A DNA stretch of 64,000 bases from a phage. Position numbers and translations under genes: made by a program. This document shows, in pieces, positions 3,361 through 50,437 of this stretch. The notes under the pieces were generated by a model, which had not been told where the DNA came from, searched no databases, and saw only the letters and a list, made by a program, of their open reading frames with translations. The DNA lies in assembly GCA_022897995.1 (NCBI GenBank), contig GCA_022897995.1_4763.1. One strand, 5' to 3'. Every line of letters begins with the position of its first letter. The first letter of the stretch is position 1.

Positions 3361-5469
3361 ATGAAAATGCATATTGATAATGAAGAAGTATTTGGCAGTG
3401 ACTTGAGCGGTGCGGTTGATTTTTCACTGAAAGCAAGTAGCAAGGCTTTTATGGTGCTTTCTAAGAACACTTATCAATATTGTGAGCGTGCTTGCGTCCG
3501 TGAGTATTCGTGCAATGCTACCGACACTCACAAAGAAGCCGGAACCTTAGATCGTCCGTTTGATATTCATTTACCGACTGCAATCGAACCGTATTTTTCT
3601 GTGCGTGATTATGGTACTGGTATTCCGTCTAAGAAAGAATTAGAACAACTGTTTACGGTTTACTTTGAATCAACCAAAGACCAGACTAATGATTATATCG
3701 GATCTTTTGGTTTGGGTGCGAAGTCTGCTTATAGCTATACCGACACCTTTACAATCGTAAACTACTACAATGGTCGCGCTTATGGCTTTACTGCATTTGT
3801 GCAAAACTCTATGCCGAAAATGGTGCAGATTTTCGACGAACCGACCTATGAAGACAATGGTCTGAAAATCACTATTCCGGTGAAAGAAAAAGACATTCAG
3901 ACATGGCATCGAGAAGCACAATTTGTACTGCGTCATTTTGGGGAACACAAACCTAATATCAATGCCATCGAAATTAATTATTTCCCTAGCTTTGATAATT
4001 ATTATGTGTGTAATGGACGTGATAACGATTCCTATGTGGTATATGCAATCATGGGTAAGATCCAGTATCCGATCCCGTATGAATATGTTCGCGGAACATG
4101 GTTAGAAGCTGTAAACCACCAGCACCAGACCATTTACATTAATTTTGAGTTGGGTGATCTGGACCTTATGCCATCGCGTGAAGAAGTTCACTTGTCAATT
4201 GAGACTAAAGCGAACATCGAAAAACGCATTGCAGAAATCAATGAAATGATGTTGGAAAAGGTTAAAGAGAAGATCGCCAACATTAAAACAGAGCGTAAAC
4301 TTGCTCAATTTATGAGCGAGTATTCATCGACGCAACGCAATATTATTAGCAAGATGGGTAAGATCGGACAATGGGACGATCCGGTAGCAATCTATAATAA
4401 GTTTGTGAATGCGGGTAAATATTCGCCTAATGACGTAGAAGGTCAGGTGTATACTCTGTATCGTACTCGTCACACAATCAGTAAATTGCGACCTGCTTTC
4501 GTTAGCAGTCAATACAACATTACGCATTTTGTATGGATGCATAAAGAAGATATTACGTGTCTTATTGATGATACCGATAAACCGAAACTGCGTGCACTGA
4601 CTCTTAACGGCATGGTCCAGGAATATGGAATCAATAAAAAAGTACTGGTGTTCCGTCAGAACAACGAAAAACATATGGAGACTTTCGAGTACATCAAACA
4701 GTATTATGATGATTCTGAAATGACCGTGATTAAGGTATCAGAGGCCGATGATCTGCGTGCTAAAGCAGTTAAGCCGGAGAAGACCGAGCGTACACAACGT
4801 GAAGCTACTCCCAAGCTGCCTAACGTGTATATCATGGAAAAGATTGGTGACAGTTGGCATAAAACCAGCCATCACATGAAAGCGGCAGAGATTCGCGAGT
4901 TATCAGGCTTGCACATGTTCCGCGTAGGTGATGCATTCGAAAGCCGTAGCCGTCAATCGATCTATAATGAAAATACATTACATACGGCGCTTGACTACTT
5001 CGGGGTAACAAAGTATATTATTACTCGAAACGAGACACAAAAATATCTCGTTGACGAACAATTGGAATGTGCGCTAGAATTTGTTCGCGGTAAGCTGGCT
5101 GGTCTGGCTAAGAAGGTTAAGACCAATCATCTGGGGTATGGCGAATATCTGGGTGTGATCACTATGTTGTTTCATGACGATGAACTAGAACGCTGTGTTC
5201 CAGAATTTATTGACAGACTGTACGGTCGTCATTATAATAAAGAGGTTTCCAAGTTACTCCTTCATACTCGTTGGATTATGGACGAAGAAACTAAAAAGAT
5301 TTGTGATGAAAAATTCACGGCAGCAAACGAACGAATTAAAGCAGTTTGTGCGAAGTTTAAAGAGAATAGCCCGTTACTGTATGATATTGTAGATAACTGG
5401 TATCGTATTCTGCATAACGACAAACGCGCACAAGACTTTATGAAACTGGTTAAGAATGTTAAATTTTAA
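3361..5469 (+). CDS. rIIA: rIIA protein (membrane-associated, N-terminal GHKL ATPase-like domain)
   Basis: 702 aa (T4 rIIA about 725 aa); motifs DYGTGIP and GSFGLGAKSAY; sits between 39 and rIIB as in T-even phages. Confidence 0.8.
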   Translation: MKMHIDNEEVFGSDLSGAVDFSLKASSKAFMVLSKNTYQYCERACVREYSCNATDTHKEAGTLDRPFDIHLPTAIEPYFSVRDYGTGIPSKKELEQLFTVYFESTKDQTNDYIGSFGLGAKSAYSYTDTFTIVNYYNGRAYGFTAFVQNSMPKMVQIFDEPTYEDNGLKITIPVKEKDIQTWHREAQFVLRHFGEHKPNINAIEINYFPSFDNYYVCNGRDNDSYVVYAIMGKIQYPIPYEYVRGTWLEAVNHQHQTIYINFELGDLDLMPSREEVHLSIETKANIEKRIAEINEMMLEKVKEKIANIKTERKLAQFMSEYSSTQRNIISKMGKIGQWDDPVAIYNKFVNAGKYSPNDVEGQVYTLYRTRHTISKLRPAFVSSQYNITHFVWMHKEDITCLIDDTDKPKLRALTLNGMVQEYGINKKVLVFRQNNEKHMETFEYIKQYYDDSEMTVIKVSEADDLRAKAVKPEKTERTQREATPKLPNVYIMEKIGDSWHKTSHHMKAAEIRELSGLHMFRVGDAFESRSRQSIYNENTLHTALDYFGVTKYIITRNETQKYLVDEQLECALEFVRGKLAGLAKKVKTNHLGYGEYLGVITMLFHDDELERCVPEFIDRLYGRHYNKEVSKLLLHTRWIMDEETKKICDEKFTAANERIKAVCAKFKENSPLLYDIVDNWYRILHNDKRAQDFMKLVKNVKF

Positions 5470-6681: not shown

Positions 6682-7008
6682 ATGGTTGATATGAAAGTTA
6701 CTTGCGAAAGTGCACATGTTGAAGTTGAAAGTAGCCAATATTCATTGCGTCCGTCCGGTCGCGTTACTGTGACTATGGATGATGTTGATTTGGTTAATAA
6801 TGTTAGTGTTGAAGATATCGTTAATGAGTATGATCATAGCGAACTGCTAGACGCAATTCCTGAACATGTTGTGATCCAGCACGTAGTAAGCAATAATGAT
6901 CCATCGACTTTCATTAAAGAATACGGCGCTGATGAAATGCTCGATGAAATTGGCGAAAAGATTGTTATTGCATGGCTTGAAAACAACGGTTATACTGTAG
7001 AACAATAA
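6682..7008 (+). CDS. hypothetical acidic protein
   Basis: 108 aa ORF following rIIB. Confidence 0.45.
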   Translation: MVDMKVTCESAHVEVESSQYSLRPSGRVTVTMDDVDLVNNVSVEDIVNEYDHSELLDAIPEHVVIQHVVSNNDPSTFIKEYGADEMLDEIGEKIVIAWLENNGYTVEQ

Positions 7009-7016
7009 TCAACATA

Positions 7017-7042
7017 GGCCGCTTTGCGCGGCCTTTCTTAGA
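7017..7042 (+). terminator. rho-independent terminator
   Basis: GGCCGC-tttgc-GCGGCC hairpin followed by TTTCTT. Confidence 0.5.
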
Positions 7043-7053
7043 GGGAATACATT

Positions 7054-7347
7054 ATGACGGTCACGGTTATTACCAAATACGACGACGAAAATGTGATTTA
7101 CGGTGACGTGGTTGTTGTTCACGGTCGTAGCATGAAAGTTACTGGTAATTGTAAAGATGGTGCTATTATTTGTGGTGAATTTGTGAGAACAGTCAATCCT
7201 ATCACCGACGAACAAAAGCGAGTCATTATCAGAAAACTTAAAGACAGTGGATATTGTAACGTCGTGGTGATTCAAGAAAAAATTGAAGTAGGCCACTTAT
7301 ACACAAATCAGAAAACAATTCCGGTATCAATGGTTAAAGGCGGTTAA
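7054..7347 (+). CDS. hypothetical protein
   Basis: 97 aa ORF with SD GAGGGAATACATT. Confidence 0.45.
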   Translation: MTVTVITKYDDENVIYGDVVVVHGRSMKVTGNCKDGAIICGEFVRTVNPITDEQKRVIIRKLKDSGYCNVVVIQEKIEVGHLYTNQKTIPVSMVKGG

Positions 7348-7349
7348 TA

Positions 7350-7712
7350 ATGCTAGGTCATTCTAAAATAGAAGATTGCTCATTCAGAGCAATGAAAGAT
7401 GATTTTTCGGTCCTGTACGCGTCTATCCGAGAGTTGTTTGTAGATTTTAAGCAATTCAGAGAATACAAAGGCGTTAAGATGCGGGAGTGGGTATTCTGGC
7501 CTTTCTATATCATTACTCTGTTTTCTATGGTATTTTGTTTTGTCGGGATCTCTATCGCTAGTTTTGTCACTTGCGTTTTCCTGATTATCAGGTGTATCAT
7601 GTTTGCTTTGATTGCTGCCCCGTTTATTGTGTCAATCCTTCCGTTAAAATGGCTATTGGATTGGGCTGATAAATCTGATAAAGTAAAGAATGTGATTTGT
7701 AAGCGTGTATGA
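7350..7712 (+). CDS. small integral membrane protein
   Basis: 120 aa with long hydrophobic stretches (WVFWPFYIITLFSMVFCFVGISIASFV, FALIAAPFIVSIL). Confidence 0.45.
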   Translation: MLGHSKIEDCSFRAMKDDFSVLYASIRELFVDFKQFREYKGVKMREWVFWPFYIITLFSMVFCFVGISIASFVTCVFLIIRCIMFALIAAPFIVSILPLKWLLDWADKSDKVKNVICKRV

Positions 7713-44923: not shown

Positions 44924-44937
44924 TTCAAAAAAAGTTG

Positions 44938-44996
44938 TTGACAGGGGATCACCGATCCCCTATACTACACACATACCGAAACGAACTAGGAGAATC
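44938..44996 (+). promoter_or_regulatory. sigma70-like promoter with stem-loop in the spacer
   Basis: TTGACA 44938-44943, spacer GGGGATCACCGATCCCC (perfect palindrome), TATACT 44961-44966; leader CACATACCGAAACGAACTAGGAGAATCA. Confidence 0.65.
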
Positions 44997-46134: not shown

Positions 46135-46148
46135 TTTTATAAAAAGTG

Positions 46149-46213
46149 TTGACAGGGGAGACACCCTCCCCTATAATATACACATCGAAACGAGATACCA
46201 ATTAGGAGAATCA
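46149..46213 (+). promoter_or_regulatory. sigma70-like promoter with stem-loop in the spacer
   Basis: TTGACA 46149-46154, spacer GGGGAGACACCCTCCCC, TATAAT 46172-46177; leader ACACATCGAAACGAGA...TAGGAGAATCA. Confidence 0.65.
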
Positions 46214-46217
46214 AACA

Positions 46218-46469
46218 ATGGCTAACATCGAAACCGCAAAGAAAATCGCTAAAGACCTGAACGTTAAAGGCTTCCGTAAACTGAAATTACAGCGTGTACG
46301 CTACACCATCGGCAAACAGTGCTCTTTCATGAGCGAAGAAGTTGCTAACAGCCTCATCGATAACCTGATCGCGGCTGGCTGGGAAGTTACGGATCTGAAA
46401 ACTTGCAGCGAACTGGCTAACAAAGGTCTTTTAGATTCTGTTACTATCAAACCAATGGGGGCAGCGTGA
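46218..46469 (+). CDS. hypothetical protein
   Basis: 83 aa starting MANIET, the same first five codons as the ORF at 48105; first gene after the promoter. Confidence 0.45.
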   Translation: MANIETAKKIAKDLNVKGFRKLKLQRVRYTIGKQCSFMSEEVANSLIDNLIAAGWEVTDLKTCSELANKGLLDSVTIKPMGAA

Positions 46470-47182
46470 AACAAAAATTAATATTCTGCAACTTTGACGG
46501 ATCGGGGATAATGGGGCTAGAATGGGCTAAAGCAGGTCATAAGGTGATCTGCTTTAATGCTGACGATGGCGACCACGGTACATACAAAAAGTATAATACC
46601 AGATTTGAACATCCAAACATTACCTATGTAAACACATGGATTGATTTGAACTGGCTGGAAAGAGCAATGGACCTTGAATGGGGGAAACCGGATATTATCT
46701 TTGCATTCCCACCGTGCACAAATTTAGCTGTTAGTGGCGCTGCACACTTTGAACGAAAGAAACGAGAGCAAGGACCATTGATTCAAGTTCATGATGTGAG
46801 GGCAGCTAAAATAACCGCTTATTTGGGTGAATGGCTAGGAGTTCCCTACATGATAGAGAATCCTGTAAGCGTTATCTCTAGCATGTGGCGTAAGCCTGAT
46901 TACATGTTCCATCCGTGGGAATATGGTGGTTATTTGCCGGAAGATGATAAACATCCTACGTTTCCTGAGTATATCGCCGCCCGTGATATGTACCCGAAAA
47001 AGACTTGCTTATGGACCGGACAAGGCTTTATAATGCCAGAAAAGAAACCGTTGCCGATTAATAAAGGGTACAGTAAACAGCATTCTAAGCTAGGCGGGAA
47101 AGGAACCAGAACAAAGACTATCAGGTCACTTACCCCGCGAGGATTTGCAAAGGCAGTATTTGAAGCCAATAAGGATCTATAA
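46466..47182 (+). CDS. C5-cytosine methyltransferase-like protein (SAM-dependent, compact)
   Basis: Motif I-like FCNFDGSGIMG, motif IV-like FAFPPCTNLAVSG (PC catalytic Cys), motif VI-like MIENPVS, C-terminal RSLTPRGFAKAV; 238 aa with only a short candidate target-recognition region. Confidence 0.45.
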   Translation: MKQKLIFCNFDGSGIMGLEWAKAGHKVICFNADDGDHGTYKKYNTRFEHPNITYVNTWIDLNWLERAMDLEWGKPDIIFAFPPCTNLAVSGAAHFERKKREQGPLIQVHDVRAAKITAYLGEWLGVPYMIENPVSVISSMWRKPDYMFHPWEYGGYLPEDDKHPTFPEYIAARDMYPKKTCLWTGQGFIMPEKKPLPINKGYSKQHSKLGGKGTRTKTIRSLTPRGFAKAVFEANKDL

Positions 47183-47511
47183 TGAGATTGTTTAAGTATT
47201 CTCTAACGTCAAATTACGATAAACAAGGTCATTGCATCCGTTGCCCTAATTGCCATAGCCATAACATTGAAAGCAAGATCACCGATCATATTGATGGACT
47301 TTGGTCGCCAGCAAGCGAGATAGAATACTATTGCGCTGATTGTGGAATTGTAGTAGCATATTGGGCATACGGATCATATGATCCTTACTTCCAGATGGGA
47401 GAGCGTTCAATCCCTGCTCTTATCTGGAGAATTAAGAACAATATCCGGCATTCATGGGATGAGTTCTTAAAAGATATTGATTTACGTGATGATCCATTCA
47501 GGAGACTATAA
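47182..47511 (+). CDS. zinc-ribbon protein
   Basis: CIRCPNCHSH ... YYCADCG; TAATG overlap with the upstream methyltransferase-like gene. Confidence 0.4.
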   Translation: MRLFKYSLTSNYDKQGHCIRCPNCHSHNIESKITDHIDGLWSPASEIEYYCADCGIVVAYWAYGSYDPYFQMGERSIPALIWRIKNNIRHSWDEFLKDIDLRDDPFRRL

Positions 47512-48028
47512 CATGAACAGATTAACGCCTAAACGCCGTTACTATACCAATACTAAAAACTTTGTCATCTCTGTTTATGAGGCGTGGTTAGAAGATGGAT
47601 ATATCAACATGAACCCAGATTATCAGCGTCCTTTAGTATGGGACACCGAAAACAAACGTATGTTTATCGAAAACCTGATTAATGATTTTCCGGTTGGTGC
47701 TATCGCAATGGCTAAGATTGATGATGGCTCTCGCTATGAGATCGAAATCGTGGACGGTAAACAGCGTTTAAACGCAATATTCTCTTTCATGAAGGATGAG
47801 TTTAGCATTGCTGGTAATGATGATTCTATGCTGTATTACAGCGATTTTACGCCAGCAGAAAAGCGACGTTTCCGAAATCTCGGACTACCAGCGATCATGA
47901 TGGAAGAGAGCACACGAGAAGACCGATTAGAGTATTTCTACAAAACAAACTTTTTCGGTGTGCCTCAATCGGAAGAACATCGCCAGCACGTAATTGCCCT
48001 ATTGCAAGATGAGCAATTAAAAAAATAA
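47477..48028 (+). CDS. DUF262 (ParB/GmrS-N-like) domain protein
   Basis: DYQRPLVW and IVDGKQRLNAI motifs as in DUF262 (DYQR...W, DGQQR); 183 aa stand-alone; overlaps the upstream ORF. Confidence 0.45.
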   Translation: MIYVMIHSGDYNMNRLTPKRRYYTNTKNFVISVYEAWLEDGYINMNPDYQRPLVWDTENKRMFIENLINDFPVGAIAMAKIDDGSRYEIEIVDGKQRLNAIFSFMKDEFSIAGNDDSMLYYSDFTPAEKRRFRNLGLPAIMMEESTREDRLEYFYKTNFFGVPQSEEHRQHVIALLQDEQLKK

Positions 48029-48039
48029 CTAAAAAGTTG

Positions 48040-48100
48040 TTGACATAACAGAGGGTGTATATCATAATACACCCATACCGAAACGAACTACTAAGGAGTA
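48040..48100 (+). promoter_or_regulatory. sigma70-like promoter with inverted repeat over the -10
   Basis: TTGACA 48040-48045, 17 nt spacer, CATAAT 48063-48068; GGGTGTATatcataatACACCC stem; leader ATACCGAAACGAACTACTAAGGAGTATCA. Confidence 0.6.
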
Positions 48101-48104
48101 TCAA

Positions 48105-48317
48105 ATGGCTAACATCGAAATCATCATTACCGACGTAACTTATGACCGCATCAACGAAATCGGTACTGCATTACTGGAAGATGGAACAACTCGTACCATC
48201 AACTACGCAGAATACGTTGAAATGCGCGGTTGGATTAAACGAGTAGGAAAATATATCCTGATTGAAAAAGACTATTCAGGATACACCTTAGAGCAATTGC
48301 TTGATGGTGCATTATAA
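48105..48317 (+). CDS. hypothetical protein
   Basis: 70 aa starting MANIE, the same first five codons as the ORF at 46218. Confidence 0.45.
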   Translation: MANIEIIITDVTYDRINEIGTALLEDGTTRTINYAEYVEMRGWIKRVGKYILIEKDYSGYTLEQLLDGAL

Positions 48318-48385: not shown

Positions 48386-50437
48386 ATGTTTAACTTAGAA
48401 ATCGACGATCTAATGATTGAATCTTTCGAGAAATGGCTGTTGACGGAAGAGGAAGAAAACTTTGGCAGTATTGCTCCGGTACAGTGCTTAAAGCCTAAGC
48501 AGAATCCTAAACAGCTTTTTGCAGTACAGACACGCGATAAAGATGTGATTGTCCGTCTTTGCAACTTCACCAACAAAACACCTAAAATTGTTCGTATGGG
48601 TGACAAGACCGCACATGTTGTACTGTGCGAAATGAACAAAAGCGGTCGTATTGTACAGCTTAAAAATGGTCTAGGCGATAACCCGATTGCAGTTATGGCA
48701 AGTGCTTTTGATGTGGTTATGGAAACAGCCCGTAAAGCGCAATTAGACGCTGTTATGTTCCGTTTTAACGTATCCCGCATGAAAGGTAAGACCGAACTGG
48801 TTAAGCGCGTTATAGAGCGTTTGGTGCGTCGTACACCGAAGTTCGAAGTATTCCAGCAGGAAGTAATGACCAGCAAAAAGATCGCTTTGGTTGTTGTCAA
48901 GCGTCGCGGGATGGCGATTGATAAGATTAAAGGGATTAAACTTGATGATTCCCTGTTCACTAAAGTAGAAAGTGATTTAGGTGATCGCTGGGTATCTAAG
49001 GCTACTGGCGAATCTCTGACTAAAGATGAAGCGTATGCGGCTAGCCTTGCATCAGAAGAAGAACGAAACGCGGAAGCGGAACAACGTGTAGCGGCTAAAT
49101 CTCGTTTGACTAAAGAAGAAATGCTGAAAACTCAAGCGACCTATAACAGCGACTATGTGAATCATCCAGAAAAAATTAATCTTAAACCGGAAGAAGATAT
49201 CACCGAAGCCGAACCTAAGAAACAGTTTAATACTCTGATTGATCGTCAAGCCTTAGAACGTTCAACCGCTCGTTCTCTGAATGACTGGACAAGTGATATT
49301 ATCACTCGCTATGGTTTCATGCGTACTATTTTTGAAAGCGAAGCCGATGCAAAATACGCAGTAAGCGAACTGGTAAAAGTTCAGGACCAATATGATCCGT
49401 TGTCTGCGGAAGTTATCGCAGCATCAATCAAACGCTTAAAAGAAATCATGAATGAAGAAGTGTTTGAAAACAAGATCACCGCCCTAGCAATGGATCGAGT
49501 AGACCAGTCTATGCCAGCAGATGTAAAGGCTGAAATGTTGCGTAGTCACATCACGCAGATTAAAACCGATGCCCTACGTAATGTTGCTTCCGGTATGTTT
49601 GAAGCAATTGCTAGCAACATGGGTGAAATGATGGCAGATATTGATCTTGATCTGCCGGGCGCGGAAGGTTTTGTGTTGAGCGAGTATGCCGATGCAGCAT
49701 ACATCAATATGAACAACTTCCTAACCGACCGTAAGCTGGAAGAGTTTGACGGCATCGCAGATCCAGAAGAATTGGTCAAGATGTGCGATGCACTGGATAA
49801 TGCCTTCTCTAACTATGGCGTTAAACTTGATCCGGGTACTATTCTGTATCGTGGTATGGACTTCCGGTCTCAAATGTGGGAAACTGCACGTAAGCAAAAA
49901 GCGTTTTACTTTAAAAACTATGTGAGCACTTCCCTTGCACCTAACATTTTTGGCGGCTGGAATGCAAACGTGGCTAGTGCCGTTGCTGGTGTTGATTCTA
50001 TGGCTGGATCTCGCGGTGAAGGTGGCGCTAATGTTGCTTTCTCCATTGCTGGCGCGGAAAACATCCCTGTATTGCCAGTAGGTAACAAGGCATTTGCTTA
50101 CAAAGAATGCGAGATTTTACTTCCTCGCGGCGTTGTGTTATCCTTTGATACGGTAACTCGTGCCACGGCATCGACGGATTCACAAGAAACTTATTACATT
50201 GAGGCACATATTATGAACAAAAATGAACTGGCAGCATTACAAGAATCTGGCGAGATGATCGCGGACGGTGATGCATTCATCCGTGAAGGTGTTGTTAAAC
50301 CTGCTTCTGACCTGTCTTTCTCCAGCTTTATTACCGAAGCTAAAACCGAACGTAAGAAAGCAGATAAGGCAACTCTACGTCAGCTTATCGCTGATCTGGT
50401 ATCTGTAGACGCAATGCCAGATAAATTTAAAATGTAA
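48386..50437 (+). CDS. alt: ADP-ribosyltransferase Alt
   Basis: 683 aa (T4 Alt about 682 aa); C-terminal R-S-E motifs: LYRGM, FKNYVSTSLAP, ECEILLPRG; position between 30 and 54. Confidence 0.75.
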   Translation: MFNLEIDDLMIESFEKWLLTEEEENFGSIAPVQCLKPKQNPKQLFAVQTRDKDVIVRLCNFTNKTPKIVRMGDKTAHVVLCEMNKSGRIVQLKNGLGDNPIAVMASAFDVVMETARKAQLDAVMFRFNVSRMKGKTELVKRVIERLVRRTPKFEVFQQEVMTSKKIALVVVKRRGMAIDKIKGIKLDDSLFTKVESDLGDRWVSKATGESLTKDEAYAASLASEEERNAEAEQRVAAKSRLTKEEMLKTQATYNSDYVNHPEKINLKPEEDITEAEPKKQFNTLIDRQALERSTARSLNDWTSDIITRYGFMRTIFESEADAKYAVSELVKVQDQYDPLSAEVIAASIKRLKEIMNEEVFENKITALAMDRVDQSMPADVKAEMLRSHITQIKTDALRNVASGMFEAIASNMGEMMADIDLDLPGAEGFVLSEYADAAYINMNNFLTDRKLEEFDGIADPEELVKMCDALDNAFSNYGVKLDPGTILYRGMDFRSQMWETARKQKAFYFKNYVSTSLAPNIFGGWNANVASAVAGVDSMAGSRGEGGANVAFSIAGAENIPVLPVGNKAFAYKECEILLPRGVVLSFDTVTRATASTDSQETYYIEAHIMNKNELAALQESGEMIADGDAFIREGVVKPASDLSFSSFITEAKTERKKADKATLRQLIADLVSVDAMPDKFKM

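Follow-up and report, generated by a model that had tools for sequence, protein, structure and literature searches.

In a 64-kb stretch of phage DNA (64,000 nucleotides; GenBank assembly GCA_022897995.1, contig GCA_022897995.1_4763.1; this whole stretch is referred to as the window), a real early unit of four genes was found between two cassettes of the promoter early stem-loop (PeSL) type. The unit comprises an orphan methylase gene, two uncharacterised early accessory genes encoding a zinc-ribbon protein and a stand-alone ParB/DUF262 protein, and a small open reading frame (ORF) in first position. The methylase is predicted with high confidence to be a compact Dcm-like C5-cytosine DNA methyltransferase, which would have a protective role, and the DUF262 protein is predicted to be a complete stand-alone ParB/DUF262 domain binding nucleoside triphosphate (NTP). 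The genes are probably separate accessory genes that stand side by side in one PeSL-bounded early unit and were assembled by PeSL shuffling. Nothing in the operon points to a new kind of system. A first-pass annotation, made from the sequence alone, had described three overlapping ORFs behind the promoter at 46149; the ORFs and the promoter were confirmed, but the number of genes had to be corrected to four, including the 83-aa ORF that precedes the methylase gene.

The unit spans 1.9 kb between the cassettes at 46149 and 48040 (Table 1) and lies in the hyperplastic region upstream of alt. A conserved leader and a Shine-Dalgarno sequence extend from the 46149 cassette to the ATG of the first gene. 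The GTG start of the methylase gene overlaps the TGA of the 83-aa ORF (GTGA), and the start of the zinc-ribbon gene overlaps the methylase stop as TAATG at 47182. The likely start of the DUF262 gene, ATG 47513, is located 1 nt past the zinc-ribbon stop, has an AGGAG Shine-Dalgarno sequence 7 nt upstream and agrees with the starts of RB49p187 and further homologues; TTG 47477, the start called by the ORF finder, was considered less likely. The window contains 14 promoter sites of this type where 0.78 would be expected, and every one of them is on the plus strand. An alignment of the cassettes at 44938, 45904, 46149 and 48040 extended across about 75 nt, including the leader and the ribosome-binding site (RBS), and the conserved stretches ran from 46136 to 46235 and from 48027 to 48122 at the two ends of the unit and began at 44925 and 45891 in the other two cassettes. 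The cassettes thus showed the features of PeSL regulatory elements, i.e. a stem-loop in the spacer of a sigma-70 promoter, a leader with RBS, and repetition. Cassettes of this kind have been described in RB49 and phi1, where they mediate the shuffling of modules (PMC2839356; PMC4122927). Those of RB49, phi1 and JSE share with the ones described here the consensus sigma-70 promoter, the spacer hairpin, the conserved leader and RBS and the position flanking small accessory-gene modules in hyperplastic regions; the only difference is one of length, as the unit in the window contains four genes in 1.9 kb instead of the typical single-ORF module. The conservation twice entered the first five codons, since the first gene of the unit and the small ORF behind the 48040 cassette both start with ATGGCTAACATCGAA (MANIE), indicating that the recombination substrate may extend into coding sequence.

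Table 1. Features of the PeSL-bounded unit (positions in the window)
Feature	Position	Strand	Remarks
PeSL-type early promoter	46149..46177	+	perfect sigma-70 promoter, TTGACA-17-TATAAT; GGGGAG...CTCCCC hairpin in the spacer
83-aa ORF, first gene of the unit, RB49p190 homologue of unknown function	46218..46469	+	phrog_14908, E 6.5e-58
Predicted compact orphan Dcm-like C5-cytosine DNA methyltransferase, 238 aa, RB49p189 homologue	46466..47182	+	PHROG 757, fold, characterised homologue
Four-cysteine zinc-ribbon protein, 109 aa, RB49p188 homologue	47182..47511	+	phrog_2993, E 9.5e-34
Predicted single-domain ParB/DUF262 NTP-binding protein, 171 aa, RB49p187 homologue	47513..48028	+	PF03235
Next PeSL cassette	48040..48068	+	TTGACA-17-CATAAT; GGGTGTAT...ATACACCC hairpin; bounds the unit and drives the small ORF 48105-48317

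The three ORFs flagged in the first-pass annotation are functional genes under strong purifying selection. In comparisons with RB49, G2248 and TB34, the ratio of non-synonymous to synonymous polymorphism (pN/pS) was 0.03-0.10 for the methylase, zinc-ribbon and DUF262 genes and 0.14-0.29 for the 83-aa ORF. Each of the three also occurred on its own, as seen in other phages, in prophages and in metagenomic contigs. In a search of 50,697 phage records (plasmids were searched for the DUF262 gene only), the methylase gene was present in 1525, including Drexlerviridae, Webervirus, rV5-like phages and phiKO2, the DUF262 gene in 306, and the zinc-ribbon gene in 95, including 9g-like and Proteus phages. 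All three were clearly together only in 57 Krischvirus genomes among the records listed. Outside Krischvirus, 1468 records carried the methylase gene and 249 the DUF262 gene, and the two did not occur together in the records listed or in the neighbourhoods inspected. Likewise, no recurrent pairing of the three genes was observed in the distant neighbourhoods, which were those of RB16, Morganella phage vB_Mm5, 9g, SECphi27, ST64B, Mydovirus (where the annotation was uninformative), two plasmids and four metagenomic contigs. Within the genus, the region, and with it the triad, was kept in 57 of the 59 records carrying the neighbouring Krischvirus alt gene; these genomes are at least 95% identical, so that retention of the triad is not independent evidence of co-function. 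Of the DNA-modification, anti-restriction or exclusion module proposed in the first-pass annotation, a role in DNA modification or anti-restriction survives as the best reading of the methylase, while an integrated three-gene module found no co-occurrence evidence beyond Krischvirus. Nor is the gene set uncharted: RB49p187-189 entered the databases in 2003, and one member of the methylase family has been characterised by experiment.

The methylase is annotated as 'DNA methyltransferase' for RB49p189 in RefSeq and matched PHROG 757 ('DNA methyltransferase') with E 1e-90. About 7300 homologues were found, with a length of about 220-260 aa among the matches listed. Motif conservation was scored in an alignment of 30 family members, in which all C5-methyltransferase motifs named in the first-pass annotation (FxGxG-like, PC, ENP and R.LTPR) were present and conserved. 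Motif I, which binds S-adenosylmethionine (SAM), reads F10-D-G12-S13-G14 and was retained, with F10, G12, S13 and G14 invariant and D11 not. Motif IV (P82-P83-C84-T85) and motif VI (E131-N132-P133) were invariant throughout, C84 being the equivalent of the catalytic cysteine, and in R220-S-L-T-P-R225 the residues R220-S-L and R225 were invariant and T223 and P224 were kept in 90% or more of the members. The AlphaFold model was confident (predicted local distance difference test score 89.8) and had the C5-methyltransferase fold; its best structural matches were C5-methyltransferases, with about 185-190 residues aligned as opposed to 120-150 for generic Rossmann proteins. The match to Pfam PF00145 remained sub-threshold, with 13.5 bits (E 0.048) where the cut-off is 22, and covered the N-terminal 90 residues, so that of the two Pfam families named for a check in the first-pass annotation PF03235 was significant (see below) and PF00145 was not; precomputed PF00145 matches exist for a few homologues. 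NCBIfam gave no match, and searches of PDB chains with the single sequence and with a profile yielded nothing useful, the match to motif I of M.HaeIII having E 1. The identity of the methylase therefore rests on PHROG 757, the fold and an experimentally studied homologue and not on PF00145. No endonuclease-like gene, which a type II restriction-modification pair would need, was found in or beside the unit, and the methylase was an orphan in the other phages whose neighbourhoods were inspected as well. Some deposited annotations (G2248, extract position 1912; the RB49 misc_feature, extract position 3654) begin the gene at an internal ATG, corresponding to M16 of the window protein. This start would delete strand beta-1 and the FDGSG motif, and the conservation of the family favours the upstream GTG.

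The studied homologue is the 711-bp dcm gene of the KarlJaspers-like Drexlerviridae phage K42, which makes 5-methylcytosine (5mC) in multicopy single-stranded DNA in vivo, is inactivated by the substitutions C82A/E128A/K175A/K176A and triggers the retron Ec86 via a CCTGG site (retron Ec86 preprint). The window methylase showed 56% full-length identity to gp14 of SECphi27 (Warwickvirus), a gene of exactly 711 bp whose product carries C82, E128, K175 and K176 at the K42 numbering. The equivalent residues in the window protein are C84, E131, K178 and K179, so that C84 aligns with the cysteine and E131 with the glutamate mutated in the inactive K42 enzyme. The K42/SECphi27 enzymes and the one described here all belong to phrog_757, are of similar size (236 vs 238 aa), have the catalytic Cys, Glu and Lys-Lys residues aligned and are orphans in lytic phages. 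They differ in that the former come from T1-type siphoviruses and the latter from a T4-type myovirus, that the stretch at about residues 193-208 is dissimilar (GYSKQHSKLGGK vs DNPGWAKTGGK), and that the Drexlerviridae dcm locus lacks the zinc-ribbon and DUF262 genes present in the operon here. Activity has been measured for the K42 Dcm, whereas the Krischvirus enzyme is known from its sequence and model.

The DUF262 protein matched PF03235 with E 4.2e-20. The first-pass annotation had recognised a stand-alone DUF262 domain by QR...W and DGKQR, which was borne out: Q38-R39...W43, D81-G-K-Q-R85 and F142...N146 were invariant across homologues and correspond to QRxxxW, DGxQR and FxxxN, which define the motifs of ParB/DUF262 (PMC12065111). 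The predicted fold resembles ParB/BrxU/SspE. No ParBDB, helical DNA-binding, DUF1524 or HNH domain was detected in the 171 aa, a search of PDB chains gave chance-level matches only, and Pfam and defence-library scans revealed no nuclease family in any of the four genes. The best defence-library matches were NsnA (E 1e-20; profile positions 47-188 of 385) and PD-T4-2_A (E 5e-12), both in their N-terminal parts only. A Menshen system was not found, as the genes downstream are a 70-aa ORF and alt, with no NsnB ABC-ATPase or NsnC effector. Without an effector or nuclease domain and without partner genes, the protein is neither a GmrSD enzyme nor part of a known defence system. GmrSD and BrxU have the same N-terminal ParB/DUF262 domain with QRxxxW, DGxQR and FxxxN, but are proteins of about 580 aa with a middle helical DNA-binding domain and a DUF1524/HNH nuclease, and they are located in defence islands and not on a phage. 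Similarly, NsnA of Menshen and PD-T4-2_A share the DUF262 domain, while here only the N-terminal part is matched, NsnB, NsnC or a PD-T4-2 partner are missing and the context is that of a lytic phage. The relation to GmrSD drawn in the first-pass annotation was thus not upheld, since no effector part of GmrSD is present and the zinc-ribbon protein does not conceal an HNH nuclease.

Stand-alone DUF262 proteins with 33-41% identity were found in further Straboviridae, namely RB16, KP15-like phages, Morganella phage vB_Mm5 and Pectobacterium phage POP12, and related proteins of 160-175 aa in about 250 other phage records. Relatives also occurred in the ST64B prophage, beside ead/Ea22 genes, in a phage-plasmid and in plasmids. 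Of the 1111 plasmids with a match to the protein, 223 were matched over at least 80% of its length and 691 were conjugative. Examples with about 38% identity are the IncFIB/IncHI1B plasmid pKPC2_CFR867 (gene at 6989-7510 of the extract) and a Citrobacter phage-plasmid (6998-7513). On plasmids, the neighbours were DUF4942, DUF6012, DUF551, DUF957 and ead/Ea22 genes in long same-strand arrays, which may be an establishment or leading-type region, and in every neighbourhood inspected the DUF262 gene was part of an array of small, unannotated, same-strand genes. Such surroundings suggest that the protein acts in establishment, in anti-defence or in competition between elements. A search of the literature for DUF262 proteins of plasmid leading regions, or with an anti-defence function, returned nothing relevant.

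The zinc-ribbon protein contains C21xxC24 and C51xxC54, in agreement with the CxxC zinc ribbon noticed earlier. In an alignment of 40 homologues, C21, C24 and C54 were invariant and C51 was conserved in at least 90%, as were E46 and the tail W61-x-Y63-G64...P68 (YWAYGxxDP). An exhaustive representative search revealed 174 relatives, nearly all of them small; word-index searches had returned one zinc-ribbon relative and seven DUF262 relatives. Matches were to generic zinc-ribbon models and to C2H2 or L33 structures alone, and a weak match to the Lar restriction-alleviation model in one of the 40 members (E 7e-4) was judged to be generic. The possibility that the protein is a degenerate HNH nuclease, forming a split GmrS-plus-nuclease pair with its neighbour, was rejected, as D35 and H36 were not conserved in the 40 homologues; no nuclease model was matched by any family member scanned.

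The source phage is a Krischvirus of the RB49 type, as judged from the 2 kb around the locus, which showed 96-97% identity to 57 complete Krischvirus genomes including RB49, JSE and phi1. The absence of a T4 counterpart, as claimed in the first-pass annotation, was verified by local tblastn: when all four proteins were compared with the complete T4 genome, nothing scored below E 0.07 (alt as control, 2e-57). The same annotation had expected a phage with modified cytosine, which proved wrong. According to the literature, krischviruses have no dCMP hydroxymethylase and no glucosyltransferases; HpaII and NheI cut RB49 DNA (PMC4041780), the genus has cytosine and lacks 5-hydroxymethylcytosine (5hmC) (PMC6563267), and no modified nucleoside was found in the Krischvirus TB34 by high-performance liquid chromatography and mass spectrometry (PMC13390438). 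In the window, observed and expected counts of restriction sites were compared. Twenty-two of the 64 six-base palindromes were missing, among them TCCGGA, GAATTC, GGATCC, ACCGGT and AAGCTT with expected counts of 24, 18, 15, 15 and 14, respectively. CCWGG was observed 21 times against 67 expected (0.31) and GGCC at 0.41 of expectation, while GATC and GCTAGC were at expectation, with no avoidance. Palindrome avoidance as strong as this is in keeping with unmodified phage DNA that escapes type II restriction through the loss of sites.

Taken in this setting, PeSL-mediated shuffling probably gathered the four coupled accessory genes, which would not form a dedicated multi-component system. Soon after infection, the methylase most likely marks a short, sparse motif on the ordinary-cytosine phage DNA, and this methylation would guard the sites still present against a host type II restriction enzyme and so complement site avoidance. 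The DUF262 protein probably binds NTP and DNA and would act, alone or together with a partner, while infection is being established; its most plausible role would be to interfere with host defence or with rival mobile elements.

Several points weigh against this account. No clear motif VIII (QxRxR) or X (GN[AS]V) could be identified in the methylase: W141-R142-K143 is conserved in place of QxRxR, and the C-terminal RSLTPRGFAKAV element resembles motif IX, with no separate motif X before the end of the protein. Formation of 5mC is known from the 56%-identical K42 family member and may apply to the Krischvirus enzyme by analogy, and the target specificity may differ, since residues 193-208 depart from the K42/SECphi27 type. 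The retron Ec86 used in the K42 study came from the B strain BL21(DE3), and RB49-like phages are propagated on E. coli B, which makes a K42-like specificity awkward, unless the phage counters the retron. The roles considered for the DUF262 and zinc-ribbon proteins are ones that we infer. Finally, the tight coupling of the three genes and their retention in nearly all Krischvirus genomes are compatible with co-function, and phages recurrently carry ParB-family domains joined to their DNA methyltransferases or in genes next to them (PMC12704722, PMC12783734).

The last two points lead to a possible but doubtful alternative, in which the genes form an integrated epigenetic module: the DUF262 NTPase, with or without help from the zinc ribbon as an adaptor, would load onto DNA and guide or read the C5-methylation made by the methylase, as a split analogue of the ParB-methyltransferase fusion proteins that are frequent in phages. 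Apart from translational coupling and co-retention in 57 of 59 Krischvirus genomes, such a module would agree with the frequent fusion of phage ParB-CTPase folds to DNA methyltransferases (PMC12704722), with the co-occurrence of ParBc and homologues of the C5-methyltransferase CmoX (PMC12783734) and with the sensing of DNA modification by the DUF262 domains of GmrSD and SspE. Co-retention among such closely related genomes is, however, not independent, the pairing of methylase and DUF262 genes was absent outside Krischvirus from the records listed and the neighbourhoods inspected, and the K42 homologue methylates DNA when expressed alone. The known fusions also combine PF02195 with N6/N4 methylases and not PF03235 with a C5 enzyme. 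The ParB-CTPase-fold proteins of phages described in these two surveys do resemble the DUF262 protein in being short, consisting almost entirely of a ParB-superfamily fold and lying beside a DNA methyltransferase; they belong, however, to PF02195 (ParBc) and are mostly fused to N6/N4 methylases or located beside CmoX, which depends on carboxy-S-adenosylmethionine (Cx-SAM), whereas here PF03235 is a separate gene beside a C5 enzyme of the SAM type without the CmoX signature.

An unlikely explanation is that the DUF262 protein is an anti-defence decoy that mimics the sensor/dimerisation domain of GmrSD/BrxU, SspE, NsnA and PD-T4-2 and poisons or blinds these systems, with the methylase as an unrelated neighbour. 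The protein consists of the sensor domain only, its NTP-binding motifs are intact and the N-terminal parts of NsnA and PD-T4-2_A are its top defence-library matches; expression is predicted to be driven by an immediate-early promoter, and homologues occur in small early or establishment-gene arrays of lytic phages, ST64B, a phage-plasmid and IncHI1B/IncFIB conjugative plasmids. On the other hand, a DUF262 decoy is without experimental precedent, GmrSD-type enzymes are no obvious threat to the unmodified DNA of krischviruses, and proteins consisting of ParB_n only are required partners of nuclease subunits in some bacterial type IV systems (PMC12373910). Quite unlikely, in our estimate, is a combination of methylase, zinc ribbon and nuclease-less DUF262 protein as a self-marking device of the phage, in which sparse 5mC would be written and the DUF262 protein would read the mark or its absence and either protect the phage's DNA or block the DUF262-type sensors that host immunity and rival elements employ. 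If this were true, stand-alone DUF262 proteins would be a new class of anti-defence or establishment factor.

It is improbable that the DUF262 protein is the sensor of an exclusion system against hypermodified T-even competitors, i.e. a split GmrS/GmrD-like enzyme with a nearby nuclease partner. Separate GmrS (DUF262) and GmrD proteins do occur in nature, and a Krischvirus, which shares its hosts with phages containing glucosylated hydroxymethylcytosine, would be immune owing to its own unmodified DNA; DUF1524 or HNH was found, however, in no gene of the unit, the zinc ribbon conserves neither D35 nor H36 and gave no nuclease-model match in the members scanned, and the DUF262 homologues elsewhere had no adjacent nuclease in the neighbourhoods inspected.

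SAP, which is 99.96% identical to TB34, is the one Krischvirus for which 5hmC and glucosyl-5hmC have been reported, formed through an unknown route; an analysis of single-nucleotide polymorphisms by the authors gave no leads (PMC13390438). Over 5.5 kb, SAP and TB34 differed in four single-base indels upstream of the unit and in a 79-bp perfect tandem PeSL duplication in SAP, located directly downstream of the DUF262 gene (SAP extract 3662-3740) and the sole change touching the unit. The coding sequences of all unit genes were identical, and the operon was therefore rejected as the cause of the difference: it neither causes bulk modification nor explains SAP. A CmoX-type enzyme is characterised by SPPC, a conserved Arg for the Cx-SAM carboxyl group and usually a phage cmoA gene nearby (PMC12783734). 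In the window protein the motif is A-F-P-P-C, and K229, the candidate counterpart of CmoX R350, was variable in the family (K/R/A/E/L/I/N), so that a CmoX-like carboxymethyltransferase was likewise discarded. That the methylase starts a hypermodification, by 5mC being oxidised and glycosylated or by transfer of some non-methyl group, for example the carboxymethyl of Cx-SAM, might account for the SAP cytosines and would suit both the rank of the phage carboxymethyltransferase CmoX as second-best structural match and the supply of Cx-SAM by E. coli, but is extremely improbable, given the identical operon in TB34 with its canonical DNA, the A-[FWY]-PPC of the methylase family in place of SPPC, the absence of cmoA, TET/JBP and glycosyltransferase genes from the unit and 5mC as the product of the K42 homologue.

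Krischviruses, whose DNA has ordinary cytosine, are employed and investigated as therapeutic coliphages, and their escape from restriction, by site avoidance together with an orphan Dcm-like methylase, bears on their host range; the methylase family is, moreover, a known trigger of the retron Ec86. What remains of interest is the stand-alone DUF262 protein, the product of an unstudied accessory gene that is widespread in phages and plasmids, as finding the function of one such protein would annotate a large family.

With regard to the surroundings of the unit, the window's exact minimal arrangement was seen in no database genome listed. In RB49, TB34 and others, p190 is separated from the methylase gene by ORF189.1 (RB49 extract 3367-3612), and a PeSL-driven ORF186 module follows the DUF262 gene (5243-5422); neither is present in the window, and G2248 lacks ORF189.1 only. 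Directly after the small ORF that follows the 48040 cassette, a full-length gene for an Alt-like RNA polymerase ADP-ribosyltransferase is located at 48386-50437 (phrog_802, E 7e-181; PF03496), with 27% identity to T4 Alt. The syntenic neighbours of alt in T4 are alt.1 and gene 30 and not these accessory genes. The 83-aa ORF at the head of the unit also showed a weak match to the C-terminal part of RT_UG35, the model of a defence-associated reverse transcriptase (E 2.9e-5, profile positions 722-785).

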